Origin: Helicobacter saguini | GTDB lineage: Bacteria > Campylobacterota > Campylobacteria > Campylobacterales > Helicobacteraceae | Direction of reading: 5' to 3' | Assembly: GCF_000762875.2 (NCBI RefSeq) | Contig: NZ_JRMP02000005.1 | Coordinates: forward strand, 164,626-188,625 | Length of the DNA stretch: 24,000 bases | Shown: positions 1-24,000 of the stretch, piece by piece | How the letters are laid out: each line of letters opens with the position of its first letter | How positions within the stretch are numbered: the stretch's first letter is position 1 | Made by a program: the position numbers and the translations under genes | Notes under the pieces: model-generated | Told to the model about the DNA's origin: nothing | The model's input: the letters and a program-made list of their open reading frames with translations, nothing else | The model's database searches: none

Positions 1-1770
1 GTTTTAGCTGGGGCTGGCGTAGATGCTTTTGAGGAAGTTTTTAAACTGATTTTTATAAAGTTGTATGATGAATTAAATACATATAGAAAAGATGAAAGAT
101 TAATAGAAAAATATGAAACTATAAAAAAATATAATGATAAAAATGAACTAGAAAAGCTATATAAACAAATGCACAATTTAGAATTTAGAAATTATGAGGG
201 CACAGGTGACAAGACTTTTAAAGACAGAATTGAAAATCTTTTTAGCGAGGCTAAGAATAAATGGAAAGGGATTTTTGAGAGTGATTCTACTATAAGTCTT
301 ACTCCATCGCATTTAGAAGTGTGCGTGAGTGAATTGCAAGAATGCAAATTTTTTAATTCAAACTTAGATATTATCGATGATGCCTTTGAATATCTAATGA
401 AAAAAGAAAGTAAAGGAGAAAAAGGGCAGTATTTTACCCCACGTTATGTGATAGATATGTGTGTAAAAATGCTAAATCCAAAAGATAGCGAAACTATGAT
501 AGATACAGCAAGTGGGAGTTGTGGCTTTCCTATTCATACTTGCTTTTATGTGTGGAAAAATATTTATAAACAAAAGGGTTTAAAAGCTAGTCATTTATTT
601 ACCGCTGAAAAAAAGATTAGTGAGTGTGAAGATTATGTTAGAAATAATGTTTTTGCCATTGATTTTGATAAAAAAGTCGTGCGTATAGCAAGGACTCTAA
701 ATATCATAGCAGGAGATGGGCATACTAATGTTTTTAGACTAAATTCACTAAATTTTCCTAAATGGGATAGTGAAAAAGATATTGATAAAGAAACAAAAAT
801 TTTTAATAAAAATATAGATGACTTAATTGATAAAAGCCTTGAAACAAACGATTATTCACATTTTAATTTTGATATTTTAATGGCAAATCCACCCTTTGCA
901 GGAAATATAAAAGAGCATTCTATCCTTAAACATTATGACTTAAGAAATACTATAAATTTTGAAAAGATTAAGGCAAATGAAATAGAAAAGTATAAAACAA
1001 TTTTAGAAAATCCAACCTTTGATGATTGTTTAAATAATCCACAAGCACTAGTAAGAACAAATGAAGGTTATAAAAAAATAAAGATTAAAGAACAGCCTGT
1101 TGTCACAAGAGATGTGCTTTTTATCGAGCGAAATTTAAATATGTTGCGTCCTGGTGGGCGAATGGCTATTGTTTTACCACAAGGCAGATTCAATAACTCA
1201 AGTGATAAATATATAAGAGAATTTATAGCAAAAAGAGCTAGAATCTTAGCAGTAGTAGGACTTCATCAAAATGTCTTTAAGCCTCACACAGGCACAAAAA
1301 CAAGTGTGTTGTTTTTACAAAAATGGGATGATAATCTTTGCCCTTTTAAAGAAAATTACAATATCTTTTTTGCTACGATGAATGAACCTAGCAAGGATAA
1401 CTCAGGGGATAAAATCTATGTGAAAGAAAAAGTAGCGCTACTAAGACAAACTATAAATAATAAAAGTAATGAGCAAACTTTAAGCCTAAAAGAATTTAAC
1501 GAAAAATATGAAAGTGTGGAAAAAGCAAGTTTTTTACAATATGAAGATTCTATCATTTCTTTAGAATCTTATAAGAAATTAGATTCTAAAGAAAAGCAAA
1601 AAGTGCTAAAACAAGAAGCTTTTATCATAGAGCAACCATTGCGTGATACTCACGGACATTTAATTGTCAAACACGATTTATTTAACCACGATGGCTTAAC
1701 GCAAGATGGTATCGCCGAAGCCTTTATAGACTTTGCAAAAATGGAAAATTTAAGCTTTTGGAGAGAATAG
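1..1770 (+). CDS. hsdM: Type I R-M N6-adenine DNA methyltransferase subunit (HsdM-like), 5' end truncated by the window edge
   Basis: The frame is open from nt 1: VLAGAGVDAFEEVFKLIFIKLYDEL precedes the tracked start at 61. Contains GQYFTPRYV, DTASGSCGF (AdoMet motif I-like) and NPPF (motif IV). An HsdS-type gene lies downstream. Confidence 0.85.
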   Translation, partial: VLAGAGVDAFEEVFKLIFIKLYDELNTYRKDERLIEKYETIKKYNDKNELEKLYKQMHNLEFRNYEGTGDKTFKDRIENLFSEAKNKWKGIFESDSTISLTPSHLEVCVSELQECKFFNSNLDIIDDAFEYLMKKESKGEKGQYFTPRYVIDMCVKMLNPKDSETMIDTASGSCGFPIHTCFYVWKNIYKQKGLKASHLFTAEKKISECEDYVRNNVFAIDFDKKVVRIARTLNIIAGDGHTNVFRLNSLNFPKWDSEKDIDKETKIFNKNIDDLIDKSLETNDYSHFNFDILMANPPFAGNIKEHSILKHYDLRNTINFEKIKANEIEKYKTILENPTFDDCLNNPQALVRTNEGYKKIKIKEQPVVTRDVLFIERNLNMLRPGGRMAIVLPQGRFNNSSDKYIREFIAKRARILAVVGLHQNVFKPHTGTKTSVLFLQKWDDNLCPFKENYNIFFATMNEPSKDNSGDKIYVKEKVALLRQTINNKSNEQTLSLKEFNEKYESVEKASFLQYEDSIISLESYKKLDSKEKQKVLKQEAFIIEQPLRDTHGHLIVKHDLFNHDGLTQDGIAEAFIDFAKMENLSFWRE

Positions 1771-1926
1771 ATTTATAGAATCTAAATTAAGAATTTAAAA
1801 TGATTATTTTTAAAAAGAACCCAAAGTAGCCTTCTCATTTAAGAGTTGCCCGCACCGCTGGCAGGCTAGCCCTTTGGATTAAAAGAATTATAGTATAATT
1901 TTTCTTAATGTTTAATAAGGATAAAT

Positions 1927-2214
1927 ATGAAAAAAGCCTATATTTATATCATTACAAATAAGAAAAATGGCACACTTTACACAGGCGTTACAAGTGATTT
2001 AATAAAAAGAATTTATGAACATAAAAATAAAATAGTTAAAGGCTTTTCAAGTAAATATGATTTAAAAAATCTAGTGTATTATGAAATGTTTGAAAATATA
2101 GAATCTGCGATTATAAGAGAAAAGCAAATAAAAGCTGGGAGTAGAAAGAAAAAGCTAGAGTTGATTAATAATTTTAATCCAACTTGGAAAGATTTATATG
2201 AAGATTTATTGTAA
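1927..2214 (+). CDS. GIY-YIG nuclease family protein (small UPF0213/YhbQ-like)
   Basis: 95 aa containing YIYIITNKKNGTLYTGVTSDL..RIYEHK..GFSSKY..LVYYE...AIIREKQIKAGSRKKK. AAGGA RBS at 1917-1921 and a TATAAT at 1894-1899. Confidence 0.85.
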   Translation: MKKAYIYIITNKKNGTLYTGVTSDLIKRIYEHKNKIVKGFSSKYDLKNLVYYEMFENIESAIIREKQIKAGSRKKKLELINNFNPTWKDLYEDLL

Positions 2215-2245
2215 ATTAATTCGCTATTGTTTGCGATGACACTTT

Positions 2246-2496
2246 GGATTGCCACGAAGTCGCGCTGACTTCTCGCAATGACGCAAAAAGTCGTCATTGC
2301 GAGCGCAGCGTTGCAATCCACACAAACGAAAGCCAAAACGCAACAAATGGATTGCTTCGCCTTTCGCTTCGCAAAAGTCTCGCAATGACGTATAGATTGC
2401 CACGCCAAGCCTTGTAGCTTATCTCGCAATAACACAACACACCGCTTTATCATAAGACGACTATCCTACGTCATTGTGAGCGTAGCGTTGCAATCT
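2246..2496. repeat. Array of five GC-rich hairpin repeat units, family GTCATTGCGAG-N(8-20)-GCAATC(C/T), in mixed orientation
   Basis: Units at 2246-2283(-), 2292-2319(+), 2349-2390(-), 2394-2434(-) and 2469-2496(+). A perfect 12-bp inverted repeat joins 2272-2283 and 2292-2303. Unit 1 has an internal 6-bp stem, 2256-2261 with 2267-2272. GC content is far above the flanks. Confidence 0.8.
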
Positions 2497-2558
2497 ATAA
2501 AATCTTAAAAAAATATAAAAATATTCTATAATTTCACTATGAAAATTAAGGAGAAAAA

Positions 2559-3975: not shown

Positions 3976-4767
3976 TTAAGAATCTTTTATCCTTTTTAGA
4001 ATCCGCGCTGGGTTGCCGCCGACTATTACATTTGTAGGGACATCTTTTGTCACCACAGCCCCTGCGGCGATTATCGCGTTATCACCGATATTTACGCCCG
4101 GGCAAATCGTGGCATTCATCCCTATCCACACGCGATTGCCGATATTTATGGGCTTGCAAAATGTGGCTTTGCGGCGGCGCGGATGAAAGTCGTGATTAAT
4201 AGTCGTAAGGCACACACGCGGCGCGATAAACACATCATCGCCGATATTTATGCCGCCCCTGTCCATAAAAGTGCAGCCTTGATTCATAAAAAAGTTGCGT
4301 CCTACGCGGATATTTCGCCCGTAATCGACATAAAAAGGCGGAATTATCCACGCAGATTCATCAAGCGGGACGCCGATAATTTCGCTAAAAATCTCTCGCA
4401 CCTTTTGCGGCGTGTGCCACTTTTCATTCAATTTAAAAGTTAGGCTCATTGTGTGATTTATCACATTGATAATTTTGTCGCATTCTTTATCATTCATATC
4501 GACTAGCTCGCCTTCAATATCTCGTGTGAAAACATCTCTATTTGTCGTGGGTGCTGGAGTTCGCCGCCACTCTTTGTGGTTTCTATCAAGCCCTATTTTG
4601 CTAGGGATAGATTCTACAAATTCTATAGAATCTAGCGACTTAGATTCTATATTTTTCACGCTTTTTTTAGAATCTTTTTTGGTTTTTTGCATTTTAGATT
4701 CTATATTAGAATCTTTTTTTAAATCTCGCGTTTTAGATTCTATAGAATCTTTAGAAATTTTTTTCAT
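3976..4767 (-). CDS. Sugar O-acetyltransferase, left-handed beta-helix hexapeptide family (Maa/LacA-like), with a motif-built N-terminal extension
   Basis: C-terminal 180 aa contain [34 protein letters not shown]...INH......R.....[52 protein letters not shown]. The start is moved from the tracked TTG (4794) to ATG 4767, which has an AAGGAG RBS 6 nt upstream. Confidence 0.8.
4609..4750. repeat. Dense cluster of 8 AGAWTCT motifs inside the acetyltransferase 5' coding extension
   Basis: Copies counted by eye from 4609-4615 to 4744-4750. Translated as DSIES/KNIES/LDSIE repeats. Confidence 0.8.
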
Positions 4768-4785
4768 AACTCTCTCCTTAAAAAT

Positions 4786-4825: not shown

Positions 4826-4841
4826 GGCTTTTTATAAAAAT

Positions 4842-6725
4842 TTATAAAGTTTTAACCATTTCCCTAACATCATTTTGATACCACGCACTGCCGTGCAAAG
4901 TCTCGCTTTTAAAGGCGTTATAGAATCTAGTTTGCAAAGTTTTAAAATCAATGTTAGATTCTAAAATCAAAGCTAAATCATTTACGCTAAGTGGCAAAAT
5001 ATTCATCCCTTTTATACATTCAACATCATTTTCAAAGTAGCACAAAATGCGGATTCTAAAATCATTTAGCACATTTTTATCCAAATGTGGCGCGATAAAA
5101 ATCGCATAAGTTTTCGCCCTAAAATTAGATTGCAAACTCAAAAGCAAATTTCCTAAATGGCGGCTCACGCTTTCCATTTCAGCTCTGCGTTGGTTTGTTT
5201 TATCAGTCAAGGTCGCTTCTATCATAACGCAGTGGCTTTCATATTGATAAATTATATCTGCGTTTCCGCCTATTGCGTGGCTTTTTGGCAGCATATTAGA
5301 ATCTAAGCTCAAGCCAGCTTGCAAGATTCTATCCACATTTTCATCATCGATATAATGAAAGCAAATCGCTATAATATACTCAAAAATAGTTGGCACACTC
5401 GCTTGTTCGCTCACCTTTTGTGCGATTAAAAAATCATTTTTTCTATCATTAAAAAGTTTTAGAATCTTAATAATTTCGCCCTTGCTAAAACGTTCTTTCA
5501 AAAGATTTTTAAGGCGGATTTTATCTTGCTTTTGTTTATAGTTTTTTAAATCTTGCAATGTTTTTATATCATATTTTTTAAAAGATTCTAAGATTTCATT
5601 ATCATTAAAATATTCTTTTAAAAGCGTTTGTGAAACCTTACTAGATTCTATAATTTTTAGAATCTTTTCAAAGTGTGAATGTTTTATTAGAATCTTAAAA
5701 ATTTCATTTATGCTAACTTTATCGCTAAAAAATTCAAAAATACCTGTAAGATTCAAATACCTAGCATTTAAATCATAATAATCTTTTAGATTCGCTAAAA
5801 TCCTAGCCTTAAAAATAAGTCTAAAAAAACGTTTTCCAAATTCGCTTAAATCGCCACTGCAAAAATCTTGCAAATCTTTTAGCTTTTGCTCTTTTTTATT
5901 TGATTTTGTAATGTAGGGCAAATATAGCTTTTTAAAATCTAAGTATTTAGAATCTTTTGTAGTTATTAAAGATTCTAAAAAGGCAGCATTTTTAGATTCT
6001 ATAAATGGTAATAAAATATCTTTTAAAGTTGCAATTATACTAAGTGCGCTTTTTTCTCCCTTAGCAGTTTTGAAATATTGTGTTTTTAGATTTTTAGAAT
6101 CTAAGTCGCTTAAAAACATTTTTAAATTACTAGATTCTAATATGCTTTTTTGCAATAAAGATTCTATAACATTTTTTCTTTTTATAGAATCTATAAAAGA
6201 TTCTACACTTTTAAAATTATTTATTAATGGTAAAAACATAAATTCATCTTTGCTTAAAGTCCCATCAAATGCCTTAAATACGCATAAATATTTTTGTAAT
6301 AAATCTTTGCTTTTTGTGAAATTTAAACTAGCTTTTAAGAAAAATAATGAAATTAAGTCAATTTGTAAAAATTCATTATTGATTTTATAACTTTGCGTTT
6401 TTATTAGATTTAATAATTCATAACCTTGCGGTGTGATTAGCTTTTCTTTTCTAATGATTAGATTATAATCTTCAAGGGGCGCGGACTTTACCCTTGCATC
6501 TTTTGTGCCTAAATTTGTCGTTGTATTTTTAGAATCTAGCAAATTATGAGTTTGCAACATTTCTAAATATTTTATTTGCAAAGTTGAATCATTTGCCCAA
6601 ATTTCATTTGCATTCGCATTTTTAAAAAGTTCATCAAATAATAAAATTTGAGATTCAAAATTATAAAGTAGATTTTTAACCCTAAGGCTTGTATTACCAA
6701 AATAGCTATAATGTGGGAAAGTCAT
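4842..6725 (-). CDS. Type II restriction endonuclease, AlwI-family-like (type IIS/nicking-enzyme family)
   Basis: 627 aa sitting 7 bp downstream of two m6A methyltransferases. N-terminal LGTKDARVKSAPLEDYNLI....LITPQGYELL is remembered as AlwI-family-like. C-terminal GGNADIIY...CVMIEATLT..TNQRRAEMESVSRHL fits a PD-(D/E)XK core. No helicase or Walker A motifs, so it is not HsdR. Confidence 0.6.
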   Translation of the reverse strand: MTFPHYSYFGNTSLRVKNLLYNFESQILLFDELFKNANANEIWANDSTLQIKYLEMLQTHNLLDSKNTTTNLGTKDARVKSAPLEDYNLIIRKEKLITPQGYELLNLIKTQSYKINNEFLQIDLISLFFLKASLNFTKSKDLLQKYLCVFKAFDGTLSKDEFMFLPLINNFKSVESFIDSIKRKNVIESLLQKSILESSNLKMFLSDLDSKNLKTQYFKTAKGEKSALSIIATLKDILLPFIESKNAAFLESLITTKDSKYLDFKKLYLPYITKSNKKEQKLKDLQDFCSGDLSEFGKRFFRLIFKARILANLKDYYDLNARYLNLTGIFEFFSDKVSINEIFKILIKHSHFEKILKIIESSKVSQTLLKEYFNDNEILESFKKYDIKTLQDLKNYKQKQDKIRLKNLLKERFSKGEIIKILKLFNDRKNDFLIAQKVSEQASVPTIFEYIIAICFHYIDDENVDRILQAGLSLDSNMLPKSHAIGGNADIIYQYESHCVMIEATLTDKTNQRRAEMESVSRHLGNLLLSLQSNFRAKTYAIFIAPHLDKNVLNDFRIRILCYFENDVECIKGMNILPLSVNDLALILESNIDFKTLQTRFYNAFKSETLHGSAWYQNDVREMVKTL

Positions 6726-6732
6726 AATATTC

Positions 6733-7710
6733 CTAATAATTTGTGATTAAAACTTCTTTAGATTCTAAGTTTTTGCTTTGATAGTTGCAATTTTTGTAGT
6801 TAAAGTTTAGATTGTGGATTTTAAATTTTGTGTGTTTTTTTAAGAAAGATTCTAGAATCTTATGCGTTTTATTTTTATGAAAAAGCACATTTGACAACGC
6901 AAATTTTATATCTTTAGAATCTAGATTGAGTAAAAAATCAAGCAAGTCATTTTCATCATTTTCCCCCCACGCATTATTTTCATTATAACTTGCATTTGCT
7001 AGGAAATAGGGCGGGTCAATATAAATAAAATCATTAGAATCTAAATTAGAAATATCAAAATTTCTAAAATCTTTATTTTGCAATTCTATATTTTTTGTCT
7101 GCAAAATTTGCATAAAATTTTTAAGTTTTTCTTGCATATTTGCGTTAAAATCGCGTTTTCCACAAGGCAGATTAAACTCGCCTTTAGCATTAAATCTTAT
7201 TTGATTATTAAAGCTAAAAATAATAAGTGTGAAAAGATAAAGGGCATCTTTATTTTTATTATACGCATTACGCAAATTTAAAAAGTTATTTTTATTGAAA
7301 CTTGATAAACCTTTAGAACTATCACATTTATAATATAAATATCCAAAATATTGGCTTTTTGATAACTCAAAAGATTCTATAAGTTTATTAATTTGCATAA
7401 AAATATGTTGCATTTTAGATTCTTTAAAAAGCTTAAAAATTTGCATTAATTCACTCATTTTATCATTTAAAATAATCTTTTTTGCATTTAAATTTATCCC
7501 AACATTTGCGCCACCGCAAAATAAATCAATGGCAATATTTATATTTTTTGGGAAAAGTGGCATAATTTGTGGCAATAATTTATACTTACCACCGATGTAA
7601 TTTAGCGGACTTTGCACGGGTTTAGAATCTATGTTGAAAAGATTAGATTTTTGCGTGTTAGATTCTAAAGATTCTATAACATTAGATTCTATCAATGCGA
7701 GATTTGACAT
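6733..7710 (-). CDS. D12-class (Dam-like) N6-adenine DNA methyltransferase
   Basis: Contains NYIGGKYKLLPQI, DLFCGGANVG (motif I) and IYIDPPY (motif IV). Overlaps the upstream methyltransferase gene by 19 nt. Confidence 0.85.
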   Translation of the reverse strand: MSNLALIESNVIESLESNTQKSNLFNIDSKPVQSPLNYIGGKYKLLPQIMPLFPKNINIAIDLFCGGANVGINLNAKKIILNDKMSELMQIFKLFKESKMQHIFMQINKLIESFELSKSQYFGYLYYKCDSSKGLSSFNKNNFLNLRNAYNKNKDALYLFTLIIFSFNNQIRFNAKGEFNLPCGKRDFNANMQEKLKNFMQILQTKNIELQNKDFRNFDISNLDSNDFIYIDPPYFLANASYNENNAWGENDENDLLDFLLNLDSKDIKFALSNVLFHKNKTHKILESFLKKHTKFKIHNLNFNYKNCNYQSKNLESKEVLITNY

Positions 7711-8936
7711 ACAAAAATCCTTTCTTTATGCTCTTTAAATGTTGTTTTTTTATCTGTTTTACCGCTATTAAATGGAGTGAAATCCACTTCAAAAAGCCTA
7801 ATTTTACCAAAAGTTTGCAGAATCTCTTTAATATCATTTTCTTTTAATATTGCGTTGCTTCGCGTGTTTGCAGATTCTGTGTTATTATAAGTAACGATTA
7901 TAAATTTGCTAATTTTTGCTAGATTTTGTATTAAATCTTTGAAAGTATTTTTTGCTTCTTTTGTGCAGTATTTGCTTAAGTTTTGTGGCTTTGGTTTTTT
8001 TGCTACGCCAAAAAGTTGTGGCTTATTATTTAAAGTTAGCGTTTCTAAAAAGTGATAGAATCTGCTATATTGCCTTGAATTATACGGCGGGTCTAAAAAG
8101 GCTATGTCTATTTTAGATTCCAAAATTTCACGCGCCAAAATATTAGAATCTTCCCTAAAAATTTCTATTTTTTTATCACTTTTAAGTGGCTTTATAAGCT
8201 CAAAATTAAAACGATTTTTAAGTGCCACATTTTTACGAAAGGCATCATAATGCCCAACCGTATTTGCAATTTTATCAACGCTATAAAGCAAACTTGCAAG
8301 TAAAATGTAAAACTCTTTTTGATTAATACTTTTAGATTCTAATCTCATATCCAAATCATCGCGAATAAAGCCTATCATTCTAGAATCTAGTTTGCTAAAA
8401 AACTTATTTCCAAAGTGCAGTTCGTAGTAATTAGATTCTACATTTTTATCTAATGAGCTAGATTCTAAAAGCCTAAAATACATTGAGTTATACTCATTTT
8501 TTATAGAATCTAGCTTATTAAAATCAAAACTCTCTTGCCAAAAAAACGCCTTATAAATCACAAAATTTGAATGCAAAAAATCATTAATATAGATTCTATC
8601 AAAAGCCTTATTTTGCAATATCATTTCGCTAACCACGCCACTCCCAGCAAACACATCAAAAAAGCTAAGTTTTTTGCAATCTTTTTTGCCCTTTTTCACA
8701 CATTCATTTTTAGAATCTAAAGTGCCTTTAGAATCTTTTTTGCAATCTCTCCCACATTTGTTCTTAGAATCTAAAGCGACATTTTTAAAATCTAATTTAA
8801 TATTTATAGAATCTTTTATAATGTTAGAATCTAAAGCAACATTTTTAGATTCTAAAACAGATTTAATAACAAAATTTATAGAATCTAAAAGCCTACTTTT
8901 ATTCCCTAGAAATCGCCTATTTGCTAGATTAAACAC
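7692..8936 (-). CDS. D12-class N6-adenine DNA methyltransferase with a motif-derived insertion of roughly 60 aa near the N-terminus
   Basis: Contains RRFLGNKSRLL, FDVFAGSGVVS (motif I) and FLDPPYNSRQYSRFYHFLE (motif IV). The low-complexity stretch between the first two motifs is encoded at about 8670-8858. Confidence 0.8.
   Translation of the reverse strand: MFNLANRRFLGNKSRLLDSINFVIKSVLESKNVALDSNIIKDSINIKLDFKNVALDSKNKCGRDCKKDSKGTLDSKNECVKKGKKDCKKLSFFDVFAGSGVVSEMILQNKAFDRIYINDFLHSNFVIYKAFFWQESFDFNKLDSIKNEYNSMYFRLLESSSLDKNVESNYYELHFGNKFFSKLDSRMIGFIRDDLDMRLESKSINQKEFYILLASLLYSVDKIANTVGHYDAFRKNVALKNRFNFELIKPLKSDKKIEIFREDSNILAREILESKIDIAFLDPPYNSRQYSRFYHFLETLTLNNKPQLFGVAKKPKPQNLSKYCTKEAKNTFKDLIQNLAKISKFIIVTYNNTESANTRSNAILKENDIKEILQTFGKIRLFEVDFTPFNSGKTDKKTTFKEHKERIFVCQISH
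8712..8886. repeat. Cluster of 7 AGAWTCT motifs with internal direct repeats (TAGAATCTAAAGCRACATTTTTA occurs twice) inside the methyltransferase gene
   Basis: Counted by eye. The peptide KNVALDS is encoded twice. Confidence 0.75.
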
Positions 8937-8948
8937 AGCTAAAAAACC

Positions 8949-10668: not shown

Positions 10669-11259
10669 TTATTCGCGGTCTTTGAACCTGCAGGGGTAAC
10701 GGCTTTTTAAGCTTACTACGCCTTCCGCATTTTGAAAGGCTTTTGAATCTACATTTAATATTCCATTTTCTTTATATTGTGTTTTTAATGATAGTTCGTT
10801 TTTCTTGTTGCTTATCACTACGACTACGATGTGGTAGCCATTAATTTGTTTGCCTAAGGTGATTGCTTTTTGATTATCTCTTGTGCGTGTGATGGCAAAC
10901 ATTTCTGCGTCATTTATGATTAAATCAATCGTTTTGAAATCGTTTAAATCAATGGGCGGCTGTCCCCTAAATTGTGCGTGTTTAGAATCTGCTCCGTGTT
11001 GTTTTAGCACGTGTAGCATCGCACTCCCACTCATTGTAATTTTAATAGGCTTTGTTGAATCTAGATTCAGTGCTTTTATTAATTGCATATTTTCTAAGTT
11101 TCCTATCCAAAGTTTAGAATCTAATCTAATTGCTTCTTTTAGTAAATCATCGCTTAATTCATCTTTCCTTGCCAAACGCAAAGTCTTGCTTTTGTCTAAT
11201 AAACTTTTAGAATCTAATTTAGAATCTTTTTTGCAATCTGTTTTACAATCTTCGCTCAA
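10669..11259 (-). CDS. Hypothetical protein, possibly a barnase/EndoU/colicin-E5/RelE-like (PBECR-type) nuclease domain
   Basis: 196 aa. The pattern MLHVLKQHG....H...........DF..I..II.....A......N.....LGK.INGYHIVVVVIS...NELSLKTQY is recalled as PBECR-like. The tracked start is a TTG. The N-terminal 20 aa are motif-derived (DCKKDSKLDSK). Confidence 0.35.
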   Translation of the reverse strand: MSEDCKTDCKKDSKLDSKSLLDKSKTLRLARKDELSDDLLKEAIRLDSKLWIGNLENMQLIKALNLDSTKPIKITMSGSAMLHVLKQHGADSKHAQFRGQPPIDLNDFKTIDLIINDAEMFAITRTRDNQKAITLGKQINGYHIVVVVISNKKNELSLKTQYKENGILNVDSKAFQNAEGVVSLKSRYPCRFKDRE

Positions 11260-11324
11260 ATCCTGCCCTTAAATCTTAGAATCTAAACTTAGATTCTAAC
11301 ATTTTTAGAGTCTGTTTATAGAAT

Positions 11325-12389
11325 CTATTTTATAGAATCTAGCGCTGCTAGTGCGTTTAAACTACGCGGATAGCCAACATAAGGGATTAACGCCGTGATA
11401 ACAGCGATTAGCTTTTCTCTATCATTTCCCATATTTAGATTGCCCTGAATGTGTGCTTTTACCTGCGAATCCGCCCCGCCAAAACTAAGCAAATACACAA
11501 ATGTTAATAGCTCTCTAAACTGCAAAGATAGCACACCACGCGTATAATAATCCCCAAAGCAATTGCTACTTAAAAACTCGCGGATATGCTTTATATCGTT
11601 TGGTGCGGCAGCGTTTCCTTTATCGATTGCCTCGCCAAAAATCTCTCTTTGTGCGTTTAAGCCTAACTCGCGGCGATTTTCCCTTGTCGTTGTGCCTTGC
11701 GGTTTTAGCGGGACTTTTATGCCATTTTGTTTAAAAATCTCATTGCAAGTTGTGATAAAATCAAGGGTTCTAGGTAGCCCGATATAAGGCGTGGCTTGAT
11801 AAATCATCTCTTTTATTTCTTCTGGTGTCGTTTTAATATTTAGTGCGCCTTTTAGAAAAAAGCCAAATTCGCTTAGGCTGTGAGATGCGATAAGACTTGC
11901 AAGCGTGATTAGCACGCGTTCATTTTGGGTTAGAATCTTGCTTTTTTCATACACCTCATCAAAGGCGAAATTGACATAATTTGTAAAAAACTCTGGGTCG
12001 CTCTTTTTAAGTGGCGTATCCACGCTTTTAAAAAGCTTTTTGAAATTATTTTCCGCATTTTTGGTAAGTTTCATTATTTGCTCCTTGTTTGTGGTTTTAG
12101 AATCTTTTTGACGATTTTGCGTGTTAGATTCTATGATTTTAGAATCTAGGGTGTTAGATTCTTTAAGTTTAGAATCTTTTACGTTTTTAGATTCTATAAT
12201 GTTAGAATCTTTTGCCATATTTTTAGAATCTAGTTTAGAATCTTTATAATTTTTCGTGTGATTTTGTGTGTTAGATTCTATAAAATGTTTAGAATCTTTA
12301 CTAGTTTCCCCAAATGTTTTAGTGCCACTAAATGCCAAAACACCGCTAATTAAAGCCGATTTTTTGATAAAATCCCTACGATTTTTCAT
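11325..12389 (-). CDS. Tat-exported carboxymuconolactone decarboxylase (CMD/AhpD-like) family protein with a long motif-built linker
   Basis: Twin-arginine signal MKNRRDFIKKSALISGVLAFSG. CMD-like repeats follow: ERVLITLASLIASHS...EIKEMIYQATPYIGLPR and RELLTFVYLLSFGGADSQVKAHI...LIAVITALIPYVGYPR. Confidence 0.75.
   Translation of the reverse strand: MKNRRDFIKKSALISGVLAFSGTKTFGETSKDSKHFIESNTQNHTKNYKDSKLDSKNMAKDSNIIESKNVKDSKLKESNTLDSKIIESNTQNRQKDSKTTNKEQIMKLTKNAENNFKKLFKSVDTPLKKSDPEFFTNYVNFAFDEVYEKSKILTQNERVLITLASLIASHSLSEFGFFLKGALNIKTTPEEIKEMIYQATPYIGLPRTLDFITTCNEIFKQNGIKVPLKPQGTTTRENRRELGLNAQREIFGEAIDKGNAAAPNDIKHIREFLSSNCFGDYYTRGVLSLQFRELLTFVYLLSFGGADSQVKAHIQGNLNMGNDREKLIAVITALIPYVGYPRSLNALAALDSIK
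12099..12297. repeat. Densest AGAWTCT cluster in the window (11 copies in about 200 bp), encoding the linker between the Tat signal and the CMD domain
   Basis: Counted by eye. Translated as KDSKHFIESN...KDSKLDSKN..KDSNIIESKNVKDSKLKESNTLDSKIIESN. Confidence 0.8.
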
Positions 12390-18097: not shown

Positions 18098-18441
18098 TTT
18101 CCACCCCTTTTTTGAATTAGATTCTATAATTTTAGCTGAAAAGCTATTTAACATTTGTTAGTTTAAAAATATGGTTTAAATAAAGATGTTATAAGATTAC
18201 TTAAAATCTAAGCACTAATTTTATACGCAAAATAAAGCTATATTGAAAAACTTAAAAACACATTGCAAAAAGCAGATTTTACTTGGAATCTTTTTTGCTT
18301 TTTTACCTGAAACTTTAAGTAAGCTTTAATAAAACTGCAATAAATAGGTAAAAAATTAGAAATATTACAATATAATTTCATTGTAATAACTTTTTATCTA
18401 TTCTCAAAGTTTTAAAATTTATAACTTTTATGGAGATTTTT

Positions 18442-19071
18442 ATGAATCTTAAGTTTTCTTTAAGGTGCGTTGTGTTGCCTTACGCACTCATTTTAGGATT
18501 TTTGCCCCCCCATTTGTACGCTGATGACGCGGCTACTAATAGCGCCGGAAATAGCGGTAATAGCGATGTTTCTAAGCTTGAGCTGGCTGGAAATGACTCC
18601 TTTGGCTATGACATCGGCAATAAGATTCGCGCGGCAAAATCAAGCTTTAACATCGGTATCGGCGCAAATTTGCTACACGAAAATAACAAAGTGCATTTCA
18701 ACGCAAGCGTGATAGCTGGCTATAGCTACTTTTGGCATAAGACCTTTGGACTGCGTGGCTATGGGCTTTTTGACAATCGCTACAATGGATTTTATGGTGC
18801 GGCTGGCGTGGATGTTATGTGGGATTTTCTGCAGTTTGAGCCTTTTGGGGTTGGGGTTATTGTTGGGAGTTCGCTAGGCTATTCTGGGCTTTATGGCGAT
18901 GGTGTGGGTGGCTTTTTAGCCCAAGCTCATCTTGGTTTTAGCCTTATTTTTGATAGTGGAAAGTCGCGTTTAGAGGCACTCGCGCGTCTGCCATACAACA
19001 AAGTGCATATGCTAAATGACTTTAAAAATGTCGGCGTAACTTATGTAATTATGTATTCTTATACATTCTAG
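18442..19071 (+). CDS. Small outer-membrane beta-barrel protein
   Basis: Signal peptide MNLKFSLRCVVLPYALILGFLPPHLYA. Alternating aromatic/Gly beta-strand pattern. C-terminal YSYTF ends in a terminal Phe. GGAG RBS before ATG 18442. Confidence 0.65.
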   Translation: MNLKFSLRCVVLPYALILGFLPPHLYADDAATNSAGNSGNSDVSKLELAGNDSFGYDIGNKIRAAKSSFNIGIGANLLHENNKVHFNASVIAGYSYFWHKTFGLRGYGLFDNRYNGFYGAAGVDVMWDFLQFEPFGVGVIVGSSLGYSGLYGDGVGGFLAQAHLGFSLIFDSGKSRLEALARLPYNKVHMLNDFKNVGVTYVIMYSYTF

Positions 19072-19119: not shown

Positions 19120-19812
19120 ATGAAAACAATCGCGGCAAATTTAAAGGCAAATCACACTCCAAAAAGCATAATCACTTATTTGAATAACTTAGAATCTAAA
19201 GTTAGTAAAATCGATACTAAAAATGTAGAAATTATCATTTTTCCTAACCAAGCCTGCTTACAAGATAACACATTTCCTAACTTTAATCTAGGCGCACAAA
19301 ACGCATATCCAGCCAAAAATGGCGCATTTAGCGGTGAGATAGGCTTAGAAGTTTTGCAGAGCCTAAACATTAATCACATTATGCTAGGGCATAGCGAGAG
19401 ACGCGGTATTTTGGGCGAAAGCGATGAGTTTATTTGCCAAAAGTTTGAGTTTTTTGCGGCGGCGAATATGCGGATAATGCTATGCGTGGGCGAAGATTCT
19501 AATATCAAAAAGCAGGGCAAAATCGCGCAGTTTTTAGAATCTCAACTAGCAAAAATTGATACAAGCTATCCGCTTTTAACCATTGCTTATGAGCCGCTGT
19601 GGGCGATAGGAAGTGGCGTGACGCCGACTTTAAGCGAGATTGAAAGCGTGGTAAAAATTTTACAGAATCTAAATTGCAAAAAGATTCTATATGGCGGCAG
19701 CGTGAGTGAAAAAAATATGCGTGAAATATGTTCTGTGGCTGATGGCGTTTTGGTTGGGAGCGCGAGTTTAGATTCTAATAATTTTGCGAATATGATAAGT
19801 AAGGTGGTTTAG
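19120..19812 (+). CDS. tpiA: Triosephosphate isomerase
   Basis: Contains GHSERR, AYEPLWAIGSG and YGGSV, and is 230 aa long. Confidence 0.9.
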   Translation: MKTIAANLKANHTPKSIITYLNNLESKVSKIDTKNVEIIIFPNQACLQDNTFPNFNLGAQNAYPAKNGAFSGEIGLEVLQSLNINHIMLGHSERRGILGESDEFICQKFEFFAAANMRIMLCVGEDSNIKKQGKIAQFLESQLAKIDTSYPLLTIAYEPLWAIGSGVTPTLSEIESVVKILQNLNCKKILYGGSVSEKNMREICSVADGVLVGSASLDSNNFANMISKVV

Positions 19813-20035
19813 AATACACCTTAAAGGCTTTTTATATAATCTAAATTATCTCTTATAATTAGTTAAATTCATGTTTTTTTAATAAAAGTTTTAGATTTTT
19901 TTAGAATCTAGAAGCTGATTTTATAAATTTTTTAGATTCTAAGAATGTATAGAATCTAAAAACTAAACTTTAGTGTTTAATAAAGTTTAAATATTTTTAG
20001 AACTTTAATTTTTATAAAGATGGTATATATTCTAT

Positions 20036-20124
20036 GTCATTGCGTTGGCATTGCCTAAGTATTCCATACGTTAATAGAAAAATAGATTGCTACGAAATTT
20101 CTTGCGAAAAATCCATTAATGACG
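20036..20124. repeat. Degenerate copies of the GTCATTGCG...GCAATC / GATTGC...ATGACG hairpin repeat family
   Basis: GTCATTGCGTTGGCATTGCC at 20036-20055 and AGATTGCTACG...CCATTAATGACG at 20084-20124. The following GACGTGTT matches 23261-23268. Confidence 0.5.
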
Positions 20125-20334
20125 TGTTTATAGAATCTAGATTCTATGTGAATGCGAGAGCAGAATGGTTTTAAGCATTTCTGTGGCAATTTTTAAGCTT
20201 TCTTTAAGATTTTGAAAGTATAACATAAAAAAAGCTATATGTATATAAAAAATTGAAAATTTTTACATATATATATCATTTTTTCTAAAATTTATGATAT
20301 AGTTTTGTCTATGAAAAACATTAAGGCATTTTGA

Positions 20335-20454
20335 ATGATTGGTAATTGGATTTTTCTAGGCATTTCATTTGGTGCTTTGGTGTTTAGTTTTGTGTATTTG
20401 GCTGTTGCTCTTGAGAAGTCAAATAGCAAAAGTGTGAAAAATAAGAATGATTAA
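20335..20454 (+). CDS. Candidate small membrane protein (39 aa), absent from the supplied ORF track
   Basis: ATG..TAA ORF encoding MIGNWIFLGISFGALVFSFVYLAVALEKSNSKSVKNKND: one TM helix plus a basic tail. It ends 10 nt before the next gene's ATG. Confidence 0.35.
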   Translation: MIGNWIFLGISFGALVFSFVYLAVALEKSNSKSVKNKND

Positions 20455-20464
20455 AGGGTATTGT

Positions 20465-20848
20465 ATGTTTAGGATTTCAAATGTTTCTAAGAAAATGGTG
20501 GGGGTTTGTGCTTTATTTTCTACTTTATTTATTTTTAATGCGTGTGGGGATAGTGAAAGTGATTTGAAAAATTTAGCACTTGAGAAATGTAAAGAAAAAG
20601 CCGAATCTTTATTAAACAATAAATATTTCCCTTATGAAAAAGTTACAAATACTGAAATAATATCTTTTGAAAAAAACGATAAAAGAAAAGACGAATTTTA
20701 TAAAGCTGAATGCAAAATAGGCTATGTTTTGAATAAGGATTATGGCGAGAGTAAAAAAGGGGATAATTATTTTCAAAAAAGTTCTATTTTTGTTAAAAAA
20801 TCGTTTGATAATGCCACAGGTAAAGATAAATGGGTAGCTTATTATTAA
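20465..20848 (+). CDS. Lipoprotein of unknown function
   Basis: MFRISNVSKKMVGVCALFSTLFIFNAC lipobox-like signal. AAAGGG lies 6 nt upstream of ATG 20465. Confidence 0.5.
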   Translation: MFRISNVSKKMVGVCALFSTLFIFNACGDSESDLKNLALEKCKEKAESLLNNKYFPYEKVTNTEIISFEKNDKRKDEFYKAECKIGYVLNKDYGESKKGDNYFQKSSIFVKKSFDNATGKDKWVAYY

Positions 20849-20869
20849 TGCTATAAGTCAATACAAATT

Positions 20870-21997
20870 TTATTTTTGTTTTCCTTTGCTATTATCCATG
20901 TGCGGTGTAGCAGAAGCTGTAAAAGCTCCGCTCATTAATTGCTCTCGTCTTGCGTTTTTAGCTCCTTCGTTTTGTCCAGCCATTTTTTGAGCCATACCTT
21001 CCATTCCCACCATAGCCAAACCTGCTGAAGCCATTCTCCTACCTAAGCCATTCTTTTGACCTGTATTGTGATTTATATCGCTACCTGATTTGCTAAATTG
21101 CTTCATTCCTTTCATAGCCATTCCACCAGCTCCAGCCACTGCTCCTGCGACTCCTGTTTTATGGTCTCCACTAGCACTTCCTACGATTGCTTGACACCAC
21201 GCTGGAATCTTGCTAAGTAATGCTATTCCTATTAAAGTTACTATAATTGGCGTTAAACATATAACTGCAACTTGTGTATCTGGCGTATTTTCATTTAATT
21301 GCATATTCCTTGAAGATTCTAAACCTAACATTATAGCTCCACCTACTAACCAAGCTAAAGGAGCTTGTAAAGCAGTGCTAACATATAATTTAAACCACGA
21401 CCAAAAATATCCACGCAAAGGCTGAATCACTAAGCAAGGTAACATAATAGGACAAAGTGATAAAATAAGCAATGCCGCAAATTTTATAAGTATTGTAAAT
21501 ATAACTATAAAGACAATAAACAACATCATAACCACCCACAAAAGCATCGCCATTAATGCGTAAATATATGTTGAAGCTTCATCCCAAGTCCATTTTTGTA
21601 ACATTCCACCTACTACTTCATTTAACCAAGTTATTAAAGTATCTACGCCATTTGCTAGATTCATACTACTACCACTACCTTTTATAGCACCATAAAACCA
21701 TTCTAAAGGTGTAACTAAAATATTTAATGCTTCCTTAAAAACTTCAAATGAGCTATAAATTGCACAAATTATTGCATAAGTAACAAGCCATACGCCCATT
21801 TTATAAAAGTCTTCTTTGTTCCATTCCTTGCCTATTTTTGTGTAAATAAATACGCATAAAGTTATTGTTAAAATAGCTATTGATAAGTAGCTTGTAAATA
21901 AATCTTTAGCCCATGTAAATAATGTTTCTTGCATTGTTACTGCTACATTACCTACTGCGGATTCCACGCTATGATAAAGTCCTTGATTTTGTGCCAT
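20870..21997 (-). CDS. Type IV secretion inner-membrane protein, VirB6/TrbL-like
   Basis: 375 aa with multiple TM helices and a Gly/Ala/Met-rich C-terminal tail as in TrbL. Located downstream of VirB11 and a VirB5/TrbJ-like gene. AAGGA RBS present. Confidence 0.55.
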   Translation of the reverse strand: MAQNQGLYHSVESAVGNVAVTMQETLFTWAKDLFTSYLSIAILTITLCVFIYTKIGKEWNKEDFYKMGVWLVTYAIICAIYSSFEVFKEALNILVTPLEWFYGAIKGSGSSMNLANGVDTLITWLNEVVGGMLQKWTWDEASTYIYALMAMLLWVVMMLFIVFIVIFTILIKFAALLILSLCPIMLPCLVIQPLRGYFWSWFKLYVSTALQAPLAWLVGGAIMLGLESSRNMQLNENTPDTQVAVICLTPIIVTLIGIALLSKIPAWCQAIVGSASGDHKTGVAGAVAGAGGMAMKGMKQFSKSGSDINHNTGQKNGLGRRMASAGLAMVGMEGMAQKMAGQNEGAKNARREQLMSGAFTASATPHMDNSKGKQK

Positions 21998-22008
21998 TTT
22001 TTATCCTT

Positions 22009-22140
22009 TTATCCTAAGATTTTTAGAATCAATCTAATAAGAGTCCATACCCAACCGCATTTTACTATTAGCAATACGAATAATATAACTAATACTACTA
22101 ATGCTATTTCATCGCTATAAAACCATTCAACAAGAAACAT
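22009..22140 (-). CDS. Candidate small T4SS-associated membrane protein (43 aa), absent from the supplied ORF track
   Basis: ORF encoding MFLVEWFYSDEIALVVLVILFVLLIVKCGWVWTLIRLILKILG. AAGGA RBS 7 nt upstream. It exactly fills the gap between the TrbJ-like and TrbL-like genes, the position of TrbK or other small subunits. Confidence 0.45.
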   Translation of the reverse strand: MFLVEWFYSDEIALVVLVILFVLLIVKCGWVWTLIRLILKILG

Positions 22141-22151
22141 TTAAAATCCTT

Positions 22152-23129
22152 TTAAAAATCACAATATTTGCTTTTAGCGGTCATATAATTTGGAAAACCA
22201 AAGGCATCTCGTTCTACTTCCTTACAATTCTCCATTGCTCTATTAAACTTAGAATCTAATTTTAAATCATCGTTATTTTCTTTCTTTTCTATCTTTGTAT
22301 CATAGATTTGATTAGTTTGTTGCATAATTGTCGCCATCATATTGCTCGTATTTTGCATTAAATCATATTGTTTTATCAAAATATCAAGCATCATTTGTTG
22401 GACTTTTACTGCTATTTCTCTTTGTTCTTTTTCGGTTTTACCCGACATATTTTCTACCTCTTTTTCTAAATTTTCGCCTTGCTCTTTTAGCTTTTTCCTT
22501 TCACCCTCTTGCGAATTATCATAAGCTTTATATCCGCTACTTATCTTTGCAATCGTTGCGTATTGCGTTTGTATTTGATTGTTTTTGATTTTTTTTCTAT
22601 TGTCTTGGATTTCTTTCATTTTGTTATTAAAGCAAGTATCATCGCCATCAATCAAGCATTGCTGGGCTTCAGTTAGGCTTTTTTGCTCTAAATGCTGTTG
22701 CACTTTTTTATCACCTATTAGTTCGGCACAGGCTTGAATCTCGGCAAATTTATTTTCGACTAAGCCTTTATAATCTTTTGCTTTTTCTTTGATAAGGTTT
22801 GCAAATTGTTGATTATCCTTAAGAATGTTGCAATCATTTTGCAATTTATTCCACAAATTATCAAGGTTTGTCATTTGCTCGACTTGCTCTTTCATTTGAT
22901 TTATTTCATCCCAGCCCTGCTTTAACTGATTAACAAAAGCGTTTATTTTTGTTAAATCAATACCTGCGGCGGCTAGTTGCTTTTCAAACATCATCATTTC
23001 TTTTATTTGGTCGACGTAGCTTGTGATTTGCTGTGTTAAGCCTGTGAAGTCGAATACAGGTAAGTTTGCATGTGCTGTTTGTATGCTTAAGCTTATGCTT
23101 AAAATTGAACTTATTAGAATCTTTTTCAT
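22152..23129 (-). CDS. Type IV secretion periplasmic/pilus-associated protein, VirB5/TrbJ-like
   Basis: Signal peptide MKKILISSILSISLSIQTAHA followed by NLPVFDFTGLTQQITSYVDQIK, which resembles the TrbJ/VirB5 N-terminal motif, then long coiled-coil sequence. GGAGA RBS present. Confidence 0.5.
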   Translation of the reverse strand: MKKILISSILSISLSIQTAHANLPVFDFTGLTQQITSYVDQIKEMMMFEKQLAAAGIDLTKINAFVNQLKQGWDEINQMKEQVEQMTNLDNLWNKLQNDCNILKDNQQFANLIKEKAKDYKGLVENKFAEIQACAELIGDKKVQQHLEQKSLTEAQQCLIDGDDTCFNNKMKEIQDNRKKIKNNQIQTQYATIAKISSGYKAYDNSQEGERKKLKEQGENLEKEVENMSGKTEKEQREIAVKVQQMMLDILIKQYDLMQNTSNMMATIMQQTNQIYDTKIEKKENNDDLKLDSKFNRAMENCKEVERDAFGFPNYMTAKSKYCDF

Positions 23130-23139
23130 GGTTGTCTCC

Positions 23140-24000
23140 TTAAATAAAGTTAAATATTTTTGTGCTTGGACTTGTGATATTTATCACATTTAAGTCGCTA
23201 AAGTGTTTAGAATCTTGTTTAGATTCTATGTTTTTTTGGATTGCTTCTTTTGTTTGCAATGACGTGTTGTCTTGGATTGCCACGCCTTTAGCTTCGCTAG
23301 AGTCTCGCAATGACAAATTAGATTCTAAAAGCCTTAAAACACTCTCATTTATAGAATCTTTTGAGTTGCCCTGTCCTGCTTTTATATGTGCTTTTACATC
23401 TAGGATTTCTAGAATCTTACGCTGTTTTCCCACACGCTCGATTTGCACGATATAATCAATGGCACTACGAATATAATCACGCAGGGCTTCTCTATCATTC
23501 ATTCCACCAAACATCGCATTAGTAATAATCGCATTGATAGCATCTTCGCTATTATTAGCGTGTAGCGTGGATAGATTCCCACTATGCCCTGTGTTATTCA
23601 CACGCAAAAATGTCAAAGTATTGCGAATGTCAATCTCGCCTAAGAATAATCTATCAGGTCGCAAACGCATTGCATTATTTATCGCAGTAGTGTAGGTATA
23701 TACGCTATTTTCATCCTTTGGCACGGCGATTTGTGTTTTATTTGGATTTGCGACAAATAGTTCTTGTGAATCTTCAATCGTAACAACCCTATCATTTATA
23801 GGGATTTCTTGCATTAGCGAGTTTAGAAAGCTAGTCTTACCACTACCTGTGCCACCACTAACTAGGACATTTTTCTTATCTTTGATAAAGTCTTTAATGC
23901 GTTGGTGTGTCCAGCCTTGCTTAATTAGATTCTCACTCAAAACAAAAGATTCTAAATTAAAGCGACTTTTACTTGGAATACGAATACAAATACACACATC
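23140..24000 (-). CDS. virB11: Type IV secretion ATPase VirB11/TrbB family; N-terminus lies beyond the window, C-terminus extended by about 80 aa of repeat-derived sequence
   Basis: Walker A VSGGTGSGKT, RPDRLFLGEI (Walker B/Asp box) and His box TGHSGNLSTLHA. The frame stays open to nt 24000. Confidence 0.9.
   Translation of the reverse strand, partial: DVCICIRIPSKSRFNLESFVLSENLIKQGWTHQRIKDFIKDKKNVLVSGGTGSGKTSFLNSLMQEIPINDRVVTIEDSQELFVANPNKTQIAVPKDENSVYTYTTAINNAMRLRPDRLFLGEIDIRNTLTFLRVNNTGHSGNLSTLHANNSEDAINAIITNAMFGGMNDREALRDYIRSAIDYIVQIERVGKQRKILEILDVKAHIKAGQGNSKDSINESVLRLLESNLSLRDSSEAKGVAIQDNTSLQTKEAIQKNIESKQDSKHFSDLNVINITSPSTKIFNFI
23237..23314. repeat. Two tandem units of the GC-rich hairpin repeat family embedded in the virB11 3' coding extension
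   Basis: GGATTGCTTC...TTTGCAATGACG at 23237-23264 and TTGGATTGCCACGCC...GTCTCGCAATGAC at 23273-23314, near-identical in design to units at 2246-2434. Translated as SLRDSSEAKGVAIQ / TSLQTKEAIQ. Confidence 0.75.

Follow-up and report, generated by a model that had tools for sequence, protein, structure and literature searches.

A hyper-abundant palindromic DNA word, TAGAWTCTA, in Helicobacter saguini and its enterohepatic relatives

How a genome comes to be saturated by one short palindrome is a question that has stood for about thirty years, since the cyanobacterial Highly Iterated Palindrome HIP1, and a locus of the gut bacterium Helicobacter saguini raises it in an extreme form. We analyzed 24,000 nucleotides of H. 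saguini DNA (positions 1-24000, hereafter the window) together with the 5.8 kb directly beyond it on the same contig (L001). The most frequent 7-mer of the window is AGAWTCT, present 157 times by exact count (AGAATCT 90, AGATTCT 67), that is, once per 153 bp or 6.5 times per kb. An initial annotation of the window had arrived at about 157 copies by manual count, with around 5 expected, and both figures stand. Shuffles that keep dinucleotides contained 4.33±2.12 copies and at most 9, and an order-2 Markov model trained with the motif masked predicts 2.7 occurrences of AGAATCT on both strands against the 157 observed; the ratio of observed to expected copies is 29-57, depending on the model. The word recurs 44 times (7.6 per kb) in the 5.8 kb beyond the window end. 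Extrapolation from 6.5 per kb and a genome of 2.75 Mb gives about 18,000 copies per genome. This is denser than any iterated bacterial DNA word known to us, and we found no earlier description of the word in Helicobacter in the open-access literature.

The word has a sharply defined form. As the initial annotation had proposed from the biased flanks, the full unit is the short perfect palindrome TAGA-W-TCTA, which is complete in 79 of the 157 copies; another 55 read AAGATTCTA or its complement TAGAATCTT, with A replacing T on one side. When the central base is oriented as A, T precedes the core in 146/157 copies and the base that follows is A in 87 and T in 56. In symmetrised flanks, A occupies position -1 in 88% of copies and T occupies position -2 in 69%. 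Measured against the order-2 Markov model, the exact word is 57 times over expectation, whereas its single-base variants (20 in all, the alternative W excluded) lie near 1 except at the outermost position, where the ratio is about 5. These outer variants are those in which the first base is changed to G or T (GGAATCT, TGAATCT); inner-position variants reach 0-2.5 times expectation, on counts of 3 or fewer except for AAAATCT, ATAATCT, AGAATAT and AGAATTT. The core GAWTC is depleted when it has neither flank (7 versus about 22 expected), mildly enriched with one flank (34 versus about 22) and present 157 times versus about 5 with both. Copies are clumped, with a median spacing of 60 bp and a coefficient of variation of 1.37.

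A cliff of this kind, with the exact word far above its variants, fits a methylation-dependent repair ratchet after Elhai's model for HIP sequences. Repair that takes its template strand from the methyl mark would keep a mistake that makes a site and undo one that breaks a site. Deviations at the outermost positions are the pattern from which Elhai argued for a methyltransferase core in HIP1 (PMC4390886). A methyltransferase would recognize the word or its GAWTC core, and copies would pile up without any cellular function of their own. The depletion of bare GAWTC alongside the enrichment of flanked GAWTC also speaks for such a ratchet. The one-step precursors of the word are not depleted, however (AGAATTT 12 versus 10.3 expected, AAAATCT 32 versus 20.2, a comparison of low power in 24 kb). 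Because single-base conversion of the very-short-patch type would deplete these precursors, the counts disfavor that form of repair and we rejected it as a candidate.

The word is found both within and between genes. Most copies (141/157) lie in open reading frames (ORFs), and 16 lie outside ORFs or across their ends. Within ORFs, the bias toward E/D-S that had been noted initially is strong, with 119 of the 141 copies read as xxA GAW TCT, 13 as xAG AWT CTx and 9 as AGA WTC; all three frames are nevertheless above the expectation of about 1.4 copies per frame. The dominant frame, xTA GAW TCT Axx, encodes L/I/K-E/D-S-K/N and is the sole frame in which TAGAWTCTAA contains no stop, the other two meeting TAG or TAA. 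Strictly intergenic DNA holds 12 copies in 2,212 bp, or 5.4 per kb versus 6.5 per kb overall, and over-representation is at least 15-fold in coding and non-coding DNA alike, an equality that a repair ratchet would also produce. Two groups are purely intergenic, one of three copies at 19903-19957 with spacings of 31 and 17 bp and one of two overlapping copies (AGAATCTAGATTCT) at 20132-20145, so the word is enriched where nothing is translated. Short spacings between copies in genes are multiples of 3 in 62 of 79 cases, whereas spacings in intergenic clusters (13, 29, 14, 31, 17 and 7 bp) follow no such rule. Since only the genic spacings fall in threes, it is translation that imposes the phase-locking, and the underlying process takes no account of frame. 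The window was also scanned for Rfam families and tRNAs, with no match.

Common ES and DS dipeptides and a common TCT codon are what would be seen if the word were a by-product of codon or dipeptide preference. ES and DS occur 84 times each versus 36 and 31 expected (about 2.5 times), and SE and SD are at or below expectation. The excess nevertheless resides in the word: GAW-TCT encodes 130 of the 168 D/E-S dipeptides, 130 of the 179 TCT codons sit in a GAW-TCT context, and outside the motif TCT supplies only 49 of 452 serine codons. When synonymous codons were shuffled with proteins and codon usage kept, a usage that is itself inflated by the motif, 22.5±4.3 copies were obtained (maximum 35) versus 141 coding copies observed; shuffling codon order within genes gave 7.2±2.8. 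The enrichment thus survives the modeling of codon usage that the initial annotation had named as a test that could overturn it. Together, the intergenic copies, the presence of all three frames and the codon-aware nulls show that the word is a property of double-stranded DNA, not of codons, peptides or RNA, in line with the initial view of a DNA-level phenomenon. About one in 25 of the residues encoded in the window is dictated by it.

We compared H. saguini with relatives at loci around the orthologues of two window genes, those for triosephosphate isomerase (TIM; 19120..19812, plus strand, 6 copies) and a carboxymuconolactone-decarboxylase (CMD), and on contigs found by a pattern scan. The TIM gene of the window is identical to that of H. 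saguini, and the window maps to contig QBIX01000001.1 of GCA_003546705.2. Against 6.5 AGAWTCT per kb in H. saguini, three uncultured relatives whose TIM proteins are 87%, 74% and 70% identical to that of H. saguini carry 5.2, 6.2 and 8.9 per kb, respectively, and three contigs from a brown-bear gut co-assembly (L214, L271, L307) carry 7.5-8.7. Proteins of the brown-bear contigs had no named relatives in a cluster look-up. Values are 2.2-3.5 per kb in H. canis, 2.8 in a contig from pygmy slow loris gut (L216), 2.4 in H. aurati, 2.1-2.4 in three contigs reached through CMD homologues, 1.5-1.8 in H. didelphidarum, an H. trogontum-like strain and Helicobacter sp. GCA_029264775, and 0.5 in H. winghamensis. 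Campylobacterales other than Helicobacter have 0.05-0.7 per kb, near expectation. The H. canis sequences were assigned through an exact protein match. In the brown-bear and slow-loris contigs copies are spread over nearly all 500-bp bins. When viral contigs were searched for runs of three motifs, 107 stretches came back, all of them local tandem arrays, many from giant-virus bins, and none dispersedly saturated.

The flanks sharpen as density rises. A at -1 increases through 38, 60 and 72 to 88%, and T at -2 through 40 and 60 to 69%. In H. winghamensis, GAWTC is still in excess (81 versus 44 expected), with R rather than A at -1. On the 1-30 kb available per genome, flank variation appears to form a gradient on a common core, without discrete dialects, and relatives use the same preferred frame. 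The word is therefore an old, graded lineage trait of an enterohepatic Helicobacter clade and not a feature of one genomic region. Because abundance and flank sharpness climb together along the lineage, we infer a long-acting directional force on the exact word. A gradual rise with flanks sharpening alongside is also what a repair ratchet would give.

Restriction-site avoidance offers another way for the word to be a by-product, with GATC and GASTC purged and GAWTC remaining. The same DNA does lack GATC, with none in the 29.8 kb of H. saguini (window plus L001) versus about 92 expected from composition. GGCC (18.6 expected), GAATTC (8.2) and GATATC (8.2) are also absent, and GTAC (3 versus 74) and CATG (12 versus 74) are strongly depleted. 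GAGTC/GACTC (GASTC), the specificity of PleI, MlyI and BspD6I, is depleted as well (7 versus 25 expected), as it is at all Helicobacter loci examined but not in other Campylobacterales. GATC is nearly absent from the saguini-like lineages, the three CMD-homologue contigs and the brown-bear contigs, and reduced by no more than half in H. aurati, H. didelphidarum and the H. trogontum-like strain; over twelve loci, GATC is scarcer where the motif is denser (Spearman rho -0.75, without correction for phylogeny). Even so, conversion of every missing GASTC would add about 18 sites, not 150, and GATC cannot turn into GAWTC by substitution. In H. canis the word reaches 15-20 times expectation and GATC is normal (59 observed, 60 expected), so motif abundance and GATC loss are separable. 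Codon or dipeptide preference and restriction avoidance are refuted as the cause by the intergenic density, which equals the genic density, by the codon-aware null and by H. canis, and we consider a by-product of either kind extremely improbable.

How do copies arise? TIM genes of nine species were aligned by codon; none of the motif sites falls at an insertion or deletion, and sites are gained by substitution, which answers the question of insertion versus substitution that the initial annotation had referred to orthologue alignment. CAA ACA (QT) in distant species corresponds to GAA TCT or GAT TCT (ES or DS) in the saguini group, so that LQT becomes LES or LDS. The central W flips between lineages, swapping E and D, and the arms stay constant. 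At one LES site H. saguini has GAA TCT and its sister lineage GAG AGC. The two codon pairs differ at four of six bases and draw their serine from different codon families; in the alignment that shows this site, columns are 90% identical on average. A multi-base patch of this kind would suit a repair ratchet.

Positions turn over rather than stay fixed. The six H. saguini sites in TIM are shared with the three closest lineages at 4/6, 4/6 and 3/6, and those lineages also hold private sites. Among the variants listed for H. saguini isolates (Table S3, PMC7096620), no variant string contains the word. Sequence conservation ends 2 bases outside the core and is confined to 9 bp, and for most pairs of copies the shared flank is no longer than in column-shuffled controls. 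Contexts of at least 16 nt are shared by 64 pairs versus about 17 in such controls, an excess that fits local duplication plus codon context and gives no sign of a mobile cassette. Nucleotide substitution in place, frequently with a changed amino acid, is thus the main source of copies, which then multiply by local tandem duplication where proteins tolerate low-complexity linkers and tails.

The clusters of the window illustrate this second step. The densest, with 11 copies in 199 bp in a single reading phase (12099..12297, minus strand, from the list of positions), lies in the CMD gene (ORF 11325-12389, minus strand) and encodes a K/D/S/E/N-rich linker of about 55-60 residues between a Tat signal peptide and the CMD domain. 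The linker is built of KDSK, LDSK and IESN units, and in a comparison with CMD homologues the signal and the domain were present and the linker insert was absent. A protein search with the linker peptide gave no usable match. At 12121-12213, Tandem Repeats Finder detected diverged repeats with periods of 15, 30 and 33 bp, which match at 61-80%. Eight copies at 4609..4750 (minus strand) form an N-terminal extension of a hexapeptide acetyltransferase (ORF 3976-4794) and include a 39-bp tandem duplication at 4667-4744, and seven copies at 8712..8886 (minus strand), in the N-terminal region of the second of two D12-class methyltransferases (ORF 7692-8936), include a 60-bp tandem duplication at 8764-8880, both from the same program. 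Six copies at 11209..11340 run from the 5' end of a PBECR3 nuclease gene through a 65-bp intergenic spacer into the 3' end of the CMD gene, and those in the spacer lie 13, 29 and 14 bp apart, distances that are not multiples of 3. Five copies occupy the C-terminal tail of a VirB11-like ATPase (23209..23417, minus strand).

The initial annotation had read larger shared blocks as a sign that the motif spreads in small cassettes, and had listed a self-propagating mini-palindrome as a candidate cause; on this account a unit of 9-22 bp is copied by insertion or by templated patch conversion. The blocks themselves are real. A 22-mer is identical at 8727-8748, in the methyltransferase cluster, and at 11218-11239, in the cluster at the PBECR3 gene, two unrelated genes, and GTGTTAGATTCTA occurs at both 7660 and 12126. 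Together with the 64 shared contexts, the motif-built CMD insert, the cluster tandem periods of 30, 33, 39 and 60 bp and the TIM site changed at 4/6 bases at once, they are what a mini-element would leave. Against it, nothing is conserved beyond 9 bp, there are no target duplications, no TIM site shows an indel, flank sharing is modest, and local tandem duplication with later divergence accounts for the inserts. In addition, with a stem of 4 bp and a loop of 1 nt the word cannot fold into the hairpins on which the machineries of repetitive extragenic palindromic (REP) elements or of IS200-type elements depend. Given substitution in orthologues and conservation of only 9 bp, we rejected a mobile mini-element as the main cause and regard it as very unlikely; the reading of the blocks as spreading cassettes does not apply in general.

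Gene starts disagree at the CMD locus, where the NCBI annotation gives a protein of 249 aa that begins past the motif-built linker and the ORF encodes 354 aa. At the start of the 354-aa ORF is a Tat-type signal (RRDFIKKS), which lines up with that of the homologues. Motif-built extensions may lead to systematic start-codon errors in this genome.

Other stretches of the window are poor in copies, and most of the uneven spread described in the initial annotation is borne out: besides the clusters of 8 and 11, the conserved acetyltransferase core (3990-4600) is empty, with no copy between 3985 and 4609, and a single copy (at 1240) precedes nt 1500 (1..1500, plus strand), in the body of an N6-adenine methyltransferase gene (61-1770). 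The count of 2 copies for the VirB5/VirB6-like genes needs correction, since 20870-23129 contains 3 (21314, 22251 and 23116). These lie in a motif-poor stretch of 2.7 kb (20447..23129, 3 copies, per-gene densities of 0-2 per kb) comprising a 133-aa ORF, a VirB6/TrbL gene and a VirB5-like coiled-coil gene, which is likely a later acquisition. In H. saguini, a spacer of 634 bp separates TIM from a partial type IV secretion block that also includes the VirB11-like ATPase (19813-23997 with the spacer), whereas in the sister lineage an AhpC/Redoxin gene stands directly after TIM in place of the block (L083 2963-3517), so that an island insertion, poor in the motif save for the ATPase tail, is probable. 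Since a blastn comparison of the block with plasmids gave no match, the case for a foreign origin is that of sister-lineage synteny and low motif density. A YafQ-family toxin gene lies some small ORFs past the block, in L001. A motif-free gene at 18430..19071 (plus strand, 44% GC), encoding a 213-aa glycine/aromatic-rich putative outer-membrane protein, has no copies in the sister lineage either. Blocks that seem recently acquired are motif-depleted, and accumulation is likely to be time-dependent.

The turnover of positions bears on a proposal that Xu, Lawrence and Durand made for HIP1, by which copies are selected binding sites of an abundant nucleoid-associated or chromosome-organizing protein. 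A 9-bp site with two-fold symmetry would fit a DNA-binding protein that acts as a dimer, roughly 18,000 copies fall in the range of an abundant architectural protein, and the trait persists over many species. We know of no candidate nucleoid-binding protein for the word. HIP1 sites have been reported to be conserved and periodic (PMC5861425). For the word, in the very small sample of six TIM sites, positions turn over quickly, with 3-4/6 sites shared between close lineages; base identity to the sister lineage within TIM sites is 37/42 (hand count, six sites), no higher than the 90% mean column identity; and copies crowd into dispensable linkers at distances of 9-30 bp and keep no regular spacing. 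We therefore regard selected nucleoid binding as improbable and rank it third.

What force, then, multiplies the word? We tentatively favor transformation-linked molecular drive on a probably methylated, GAWTC-based word, and put its probability at roughly 40%. This reading would join two candidates that the initial annotation had kept apart, an uptake or recombination signal and an epigenetic GAWTC site, and the combination is held no more firmly than the drive itself. TfiI recognizes GAWTC, which also falls within GANTC, the HinfI site. A central W between perfectly symmetric arms typifies type II restriction-modification specificities, and for this reason the reader of the word would be a symmetric, dimeric protein of the methyltransferase or restriction-enzyme kind with a GAWTC core. 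DNA bearing the word, probably with N6-methyladenine in GAWTC, would be taken up or recombined preferentially, and alleles that gain a copy would spread through the population by gene conversion, as with the DNA uptake sequence (DUS) and the uptake signal sequence (USS). Recombination tracts in Helicobacter are very short, as known from H. pylori work, and such tracts would favor a far higher equilibrium density than in Neisseria or Haemophilus.

We rank transformation-linked drive first because there are two experimental precedents and the genus is naturally competent. The first precedent is Campylobacter jejuni, which belongs to the same bacterial order as Helicobacter. According to Beauchamp et al. 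2017, as cited in PMC10046745, it imports only DNA with methylated RAATTY. In the second, from Synechococcus, natural transformation increases by more than 100-fold with methylated HIP1 (bioRxiv 10.1101/2024.09.10.611283), and across cyanobacteria HIP1 abundance tracks DNA-uptake genes (bioRxiv 10.64898/2026.06.24.733823).

The window itself encodes a prepilin-type protein and three adenine methyltransferases, which we count in favor of transformation-linked drive. The prepilin-type protein (16739-17290, minus strand, 183 aa) has an N-terminal cleavage/methylation motif (Pfam N_methyl), matches NCBIfam IV_pilin_GFxxxE above cut-off and gives weak GspG/ComGC-type matches. Pseudopilins belong to the Campylobacter DNA-uptake machine; the relevance of this protein to the motif is speculative. 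Two of the methyltransferases lie in a restriction-modification cluster (4842..8936, minus strand) made up of an AlwI/BspD6I-family endonuclease (4842-6725), a T4-Dam-like methyltransferase (6733-7710, E-value 4e-37 to PDB 1YFJ) and the second D12 methyltransferase (7692-8936). The cluster has the highest gene-wide motif densities, 9.6-13.7 per kb, and is a candidate source of adenine methylation. The third is the N6-adenine methyltransferase encoded with a specificity-subunit-like protein at 61-3959 (plus strand). In NCBIfam these two proteins match best to MAD2 and MAD5, components of the 'methylation-associated defense system', with scores (261 and 92 bits) that fall far short of the curated cut-offs (720 and 400, respectively).

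The T4-Dam-like methyltransferase is encoded in a stretch without a single GATC. An orphan Dam-family methyltransferase common to GATC-free genomes was considered and rejected: the D12 enzyme on another contig (L205) is only 23% identical to the enzymes of the window and so not an orthologue.

Several points weigh against transformation-linked drive, for which the case is one of analogy. Genome-wide statements are extrapolated from about 30 kb of H. saguini and from 1-20 kb of each relative. A density of 6.5 per kb is some six times that of any DUS, USS or HIP1, and the clumping of copies exceeds the needs of an uptake tag. Known uptake sequences are asymmetric, whereas the word is a perfect palindrome. 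The replacement of four bases in six at the TIM LES site is a poor fit to stepwise mutation and recombination, and the best-characterized relative of one window methyltransferase, T4 Dam, is specific for GATC. Finally, H. pylori takes in lambda DNA without sequence preference (PMC10046745).

A repair ratchet would share some of the evidence for transformation-linked drive, including the several adenine methyltransferases of the window. To our knowledge, Campylobacterota are without MutS1, MutL and MutH and no methyl-directed repair is known in them, which counts against a ratchet; for HIP1, moreover, Xu et al. favored selection over repair bias (PMC5861425). We consider the ratchet unlikely, though to be taken seriously, and rank it second.

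Three neighboring genes of the window encode a metallo-beta-lactamase-fold protein with a weak precomputed match to the Anti-Pycsar protein Apyc1 (8949-9779), the PBECR3 nuclease-like protein (10669-11259) and a 611-aa protein with an LPD3 domain (12459-14294), all on the minus strand; their domains are typical of mobile-element or defense/counter-defense cargo, and all three genes are motif-laden. ORF 9784-10566 encodes a 260-aa, secreted-looking protein with no Pfam match; it contains a 9-bp tandem repeat of 6.7 copies (10099-10158, minus strand), PQN-rich (…PQNPQNSPTSQNPQNPQTPQ…) and unrelated to the palindrome.

An independent case in another phylum would show that the HIP phenomenon is general. 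In living Helicobacter species the enrichment grades from about 2-fold up to about 40-fold, with H. saguini, H. canis and H. aurati as cultured members, and such a graded series permits comparative tests against methyltransferases and uptake genes. It also shows a DNA-level force overriding protein sequence, with ES and DS raised 2.5 times and linkers of 50-60 residues made of the word. If the account given here is true, no functional DNA word known from bacterial genomes would be denser; the word would have forced thousands of amino-acid changes and built new protein linkers, and its host genus can be cultured and is naturally competent. The word could serve to mark the lineage in gut metagenomes. 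If it gates transformation, adding the methylated word to constructs could open poorly tractable Helicobacter to genetics. PacBio reads of this strain exist (PRJNA449717), so that its methylation is answerable without new wet work.

Among known systems, the word differs from a Chi-type recombination hotspot in that it is its own reverse complement and can have no orientation. Like the Rickettsia palindromic elements, it is repeated palindromic DNA that lies in frame inside genes and adds peptide segments. Rickettsia palindromic elements, REP/RAYT and miniature inverted-repeat transposable elements are 20-150 bp long, have a conserved interior and hairpin potential, and arrive by insertion. Here only 9 bp are conserved and copies appear by substitution in place, so the word lacks both the unit of at least 20 bp and the insertion that define a small mobile palindromic element.

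Closer are the DUS of Neisseriaceae and the USS of Pasteurellaceae, which are hyper-abundant short words of naturally competent bacteria (PMC3630211, PMC2397512, PMC3458573). They accumulate by point mutation and recombination, have lineage-specific variants, are depleted from recently acquired DNA, and sit in permissive frames and poorly constrained parts of proteins. The word matches them in over-representation and in placement, as the initial annotation had observed for USS. DUS and USS are, however, asymmetric 9-12-mers at about 1 per kb, and DUS often form inverted pairs at terminators, whereas the word is a palindrome at 6.5 per kb with 141/157 copies in ORFs. Uptake bias and a receptor (ComP) have been demonstrated for DUS/USS; the word is known from sequence.

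The RAm6ATTY signal of C. jejuni (CtsM), as far as the secondary source describes it, is likewise a short AT-rich palindrome with an adenine-methylation target, from the same order. The prepilin-type protein and adenine methyltransferases of the window add to this likeness. We know of no report that RAATTY has been driven to extreme over-representation.

The closest likeness is to HIP1, reportedly first described by Robinson et al. 1995, and it corrects the initial statement that no description of such a system was known. HIP1 is the cyanobacterial palindrome GCGATCGC (Elhai 2015, PMC4390886; Xu, Lawrence and Durand 2018, PMC5861425), 15-300 times over-represented within and between genes (PMC5861425), with single-base variants biased to the first and last positions and a proposed link to methyltransferases that recognize its core (PMC4390886). 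Both are short perfect palindromes of restriction-site type with a preferred reading frame, over-represented in genes and between them, and both deviate by single bases at the outermost positions. HIP1 is reported to spread by substitution rather than transposition, and the word likewise gains copies in place, with linkers gaining theirs by local tandem duplication; both have alternative or sharpened versions in related lineages. The function of HIP1 was obscure for decades and is now tied to methylation-dependent natural transformation. The word differs in belonging to Campylobacterota and in being AT-rich, of odd length and degenerate at its center. It is also about six times denser (6.5 per kb versus roughly one HIP1 per gene), and the Helicobacter proteome is visibly remodeled, with low-complexity linkers built from the word. 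With a sequence other than GCGATCGC and a host that is not a cyanobacterium, the word is HIP-like rather than HIP1 proper. Its sequence features suggest a HIP-type palindrome in a new phylum, undescribed in Helicobacter as far as we found. Enterohepatic Helicobacter may thus harbor, on a reading that we advance with some reserve, a second and independently evolved HIP-type system, in which the palindrome would act as a methylation-read 'self' signal driven by transformation or else would reflect an unknown methyl-directed repair.

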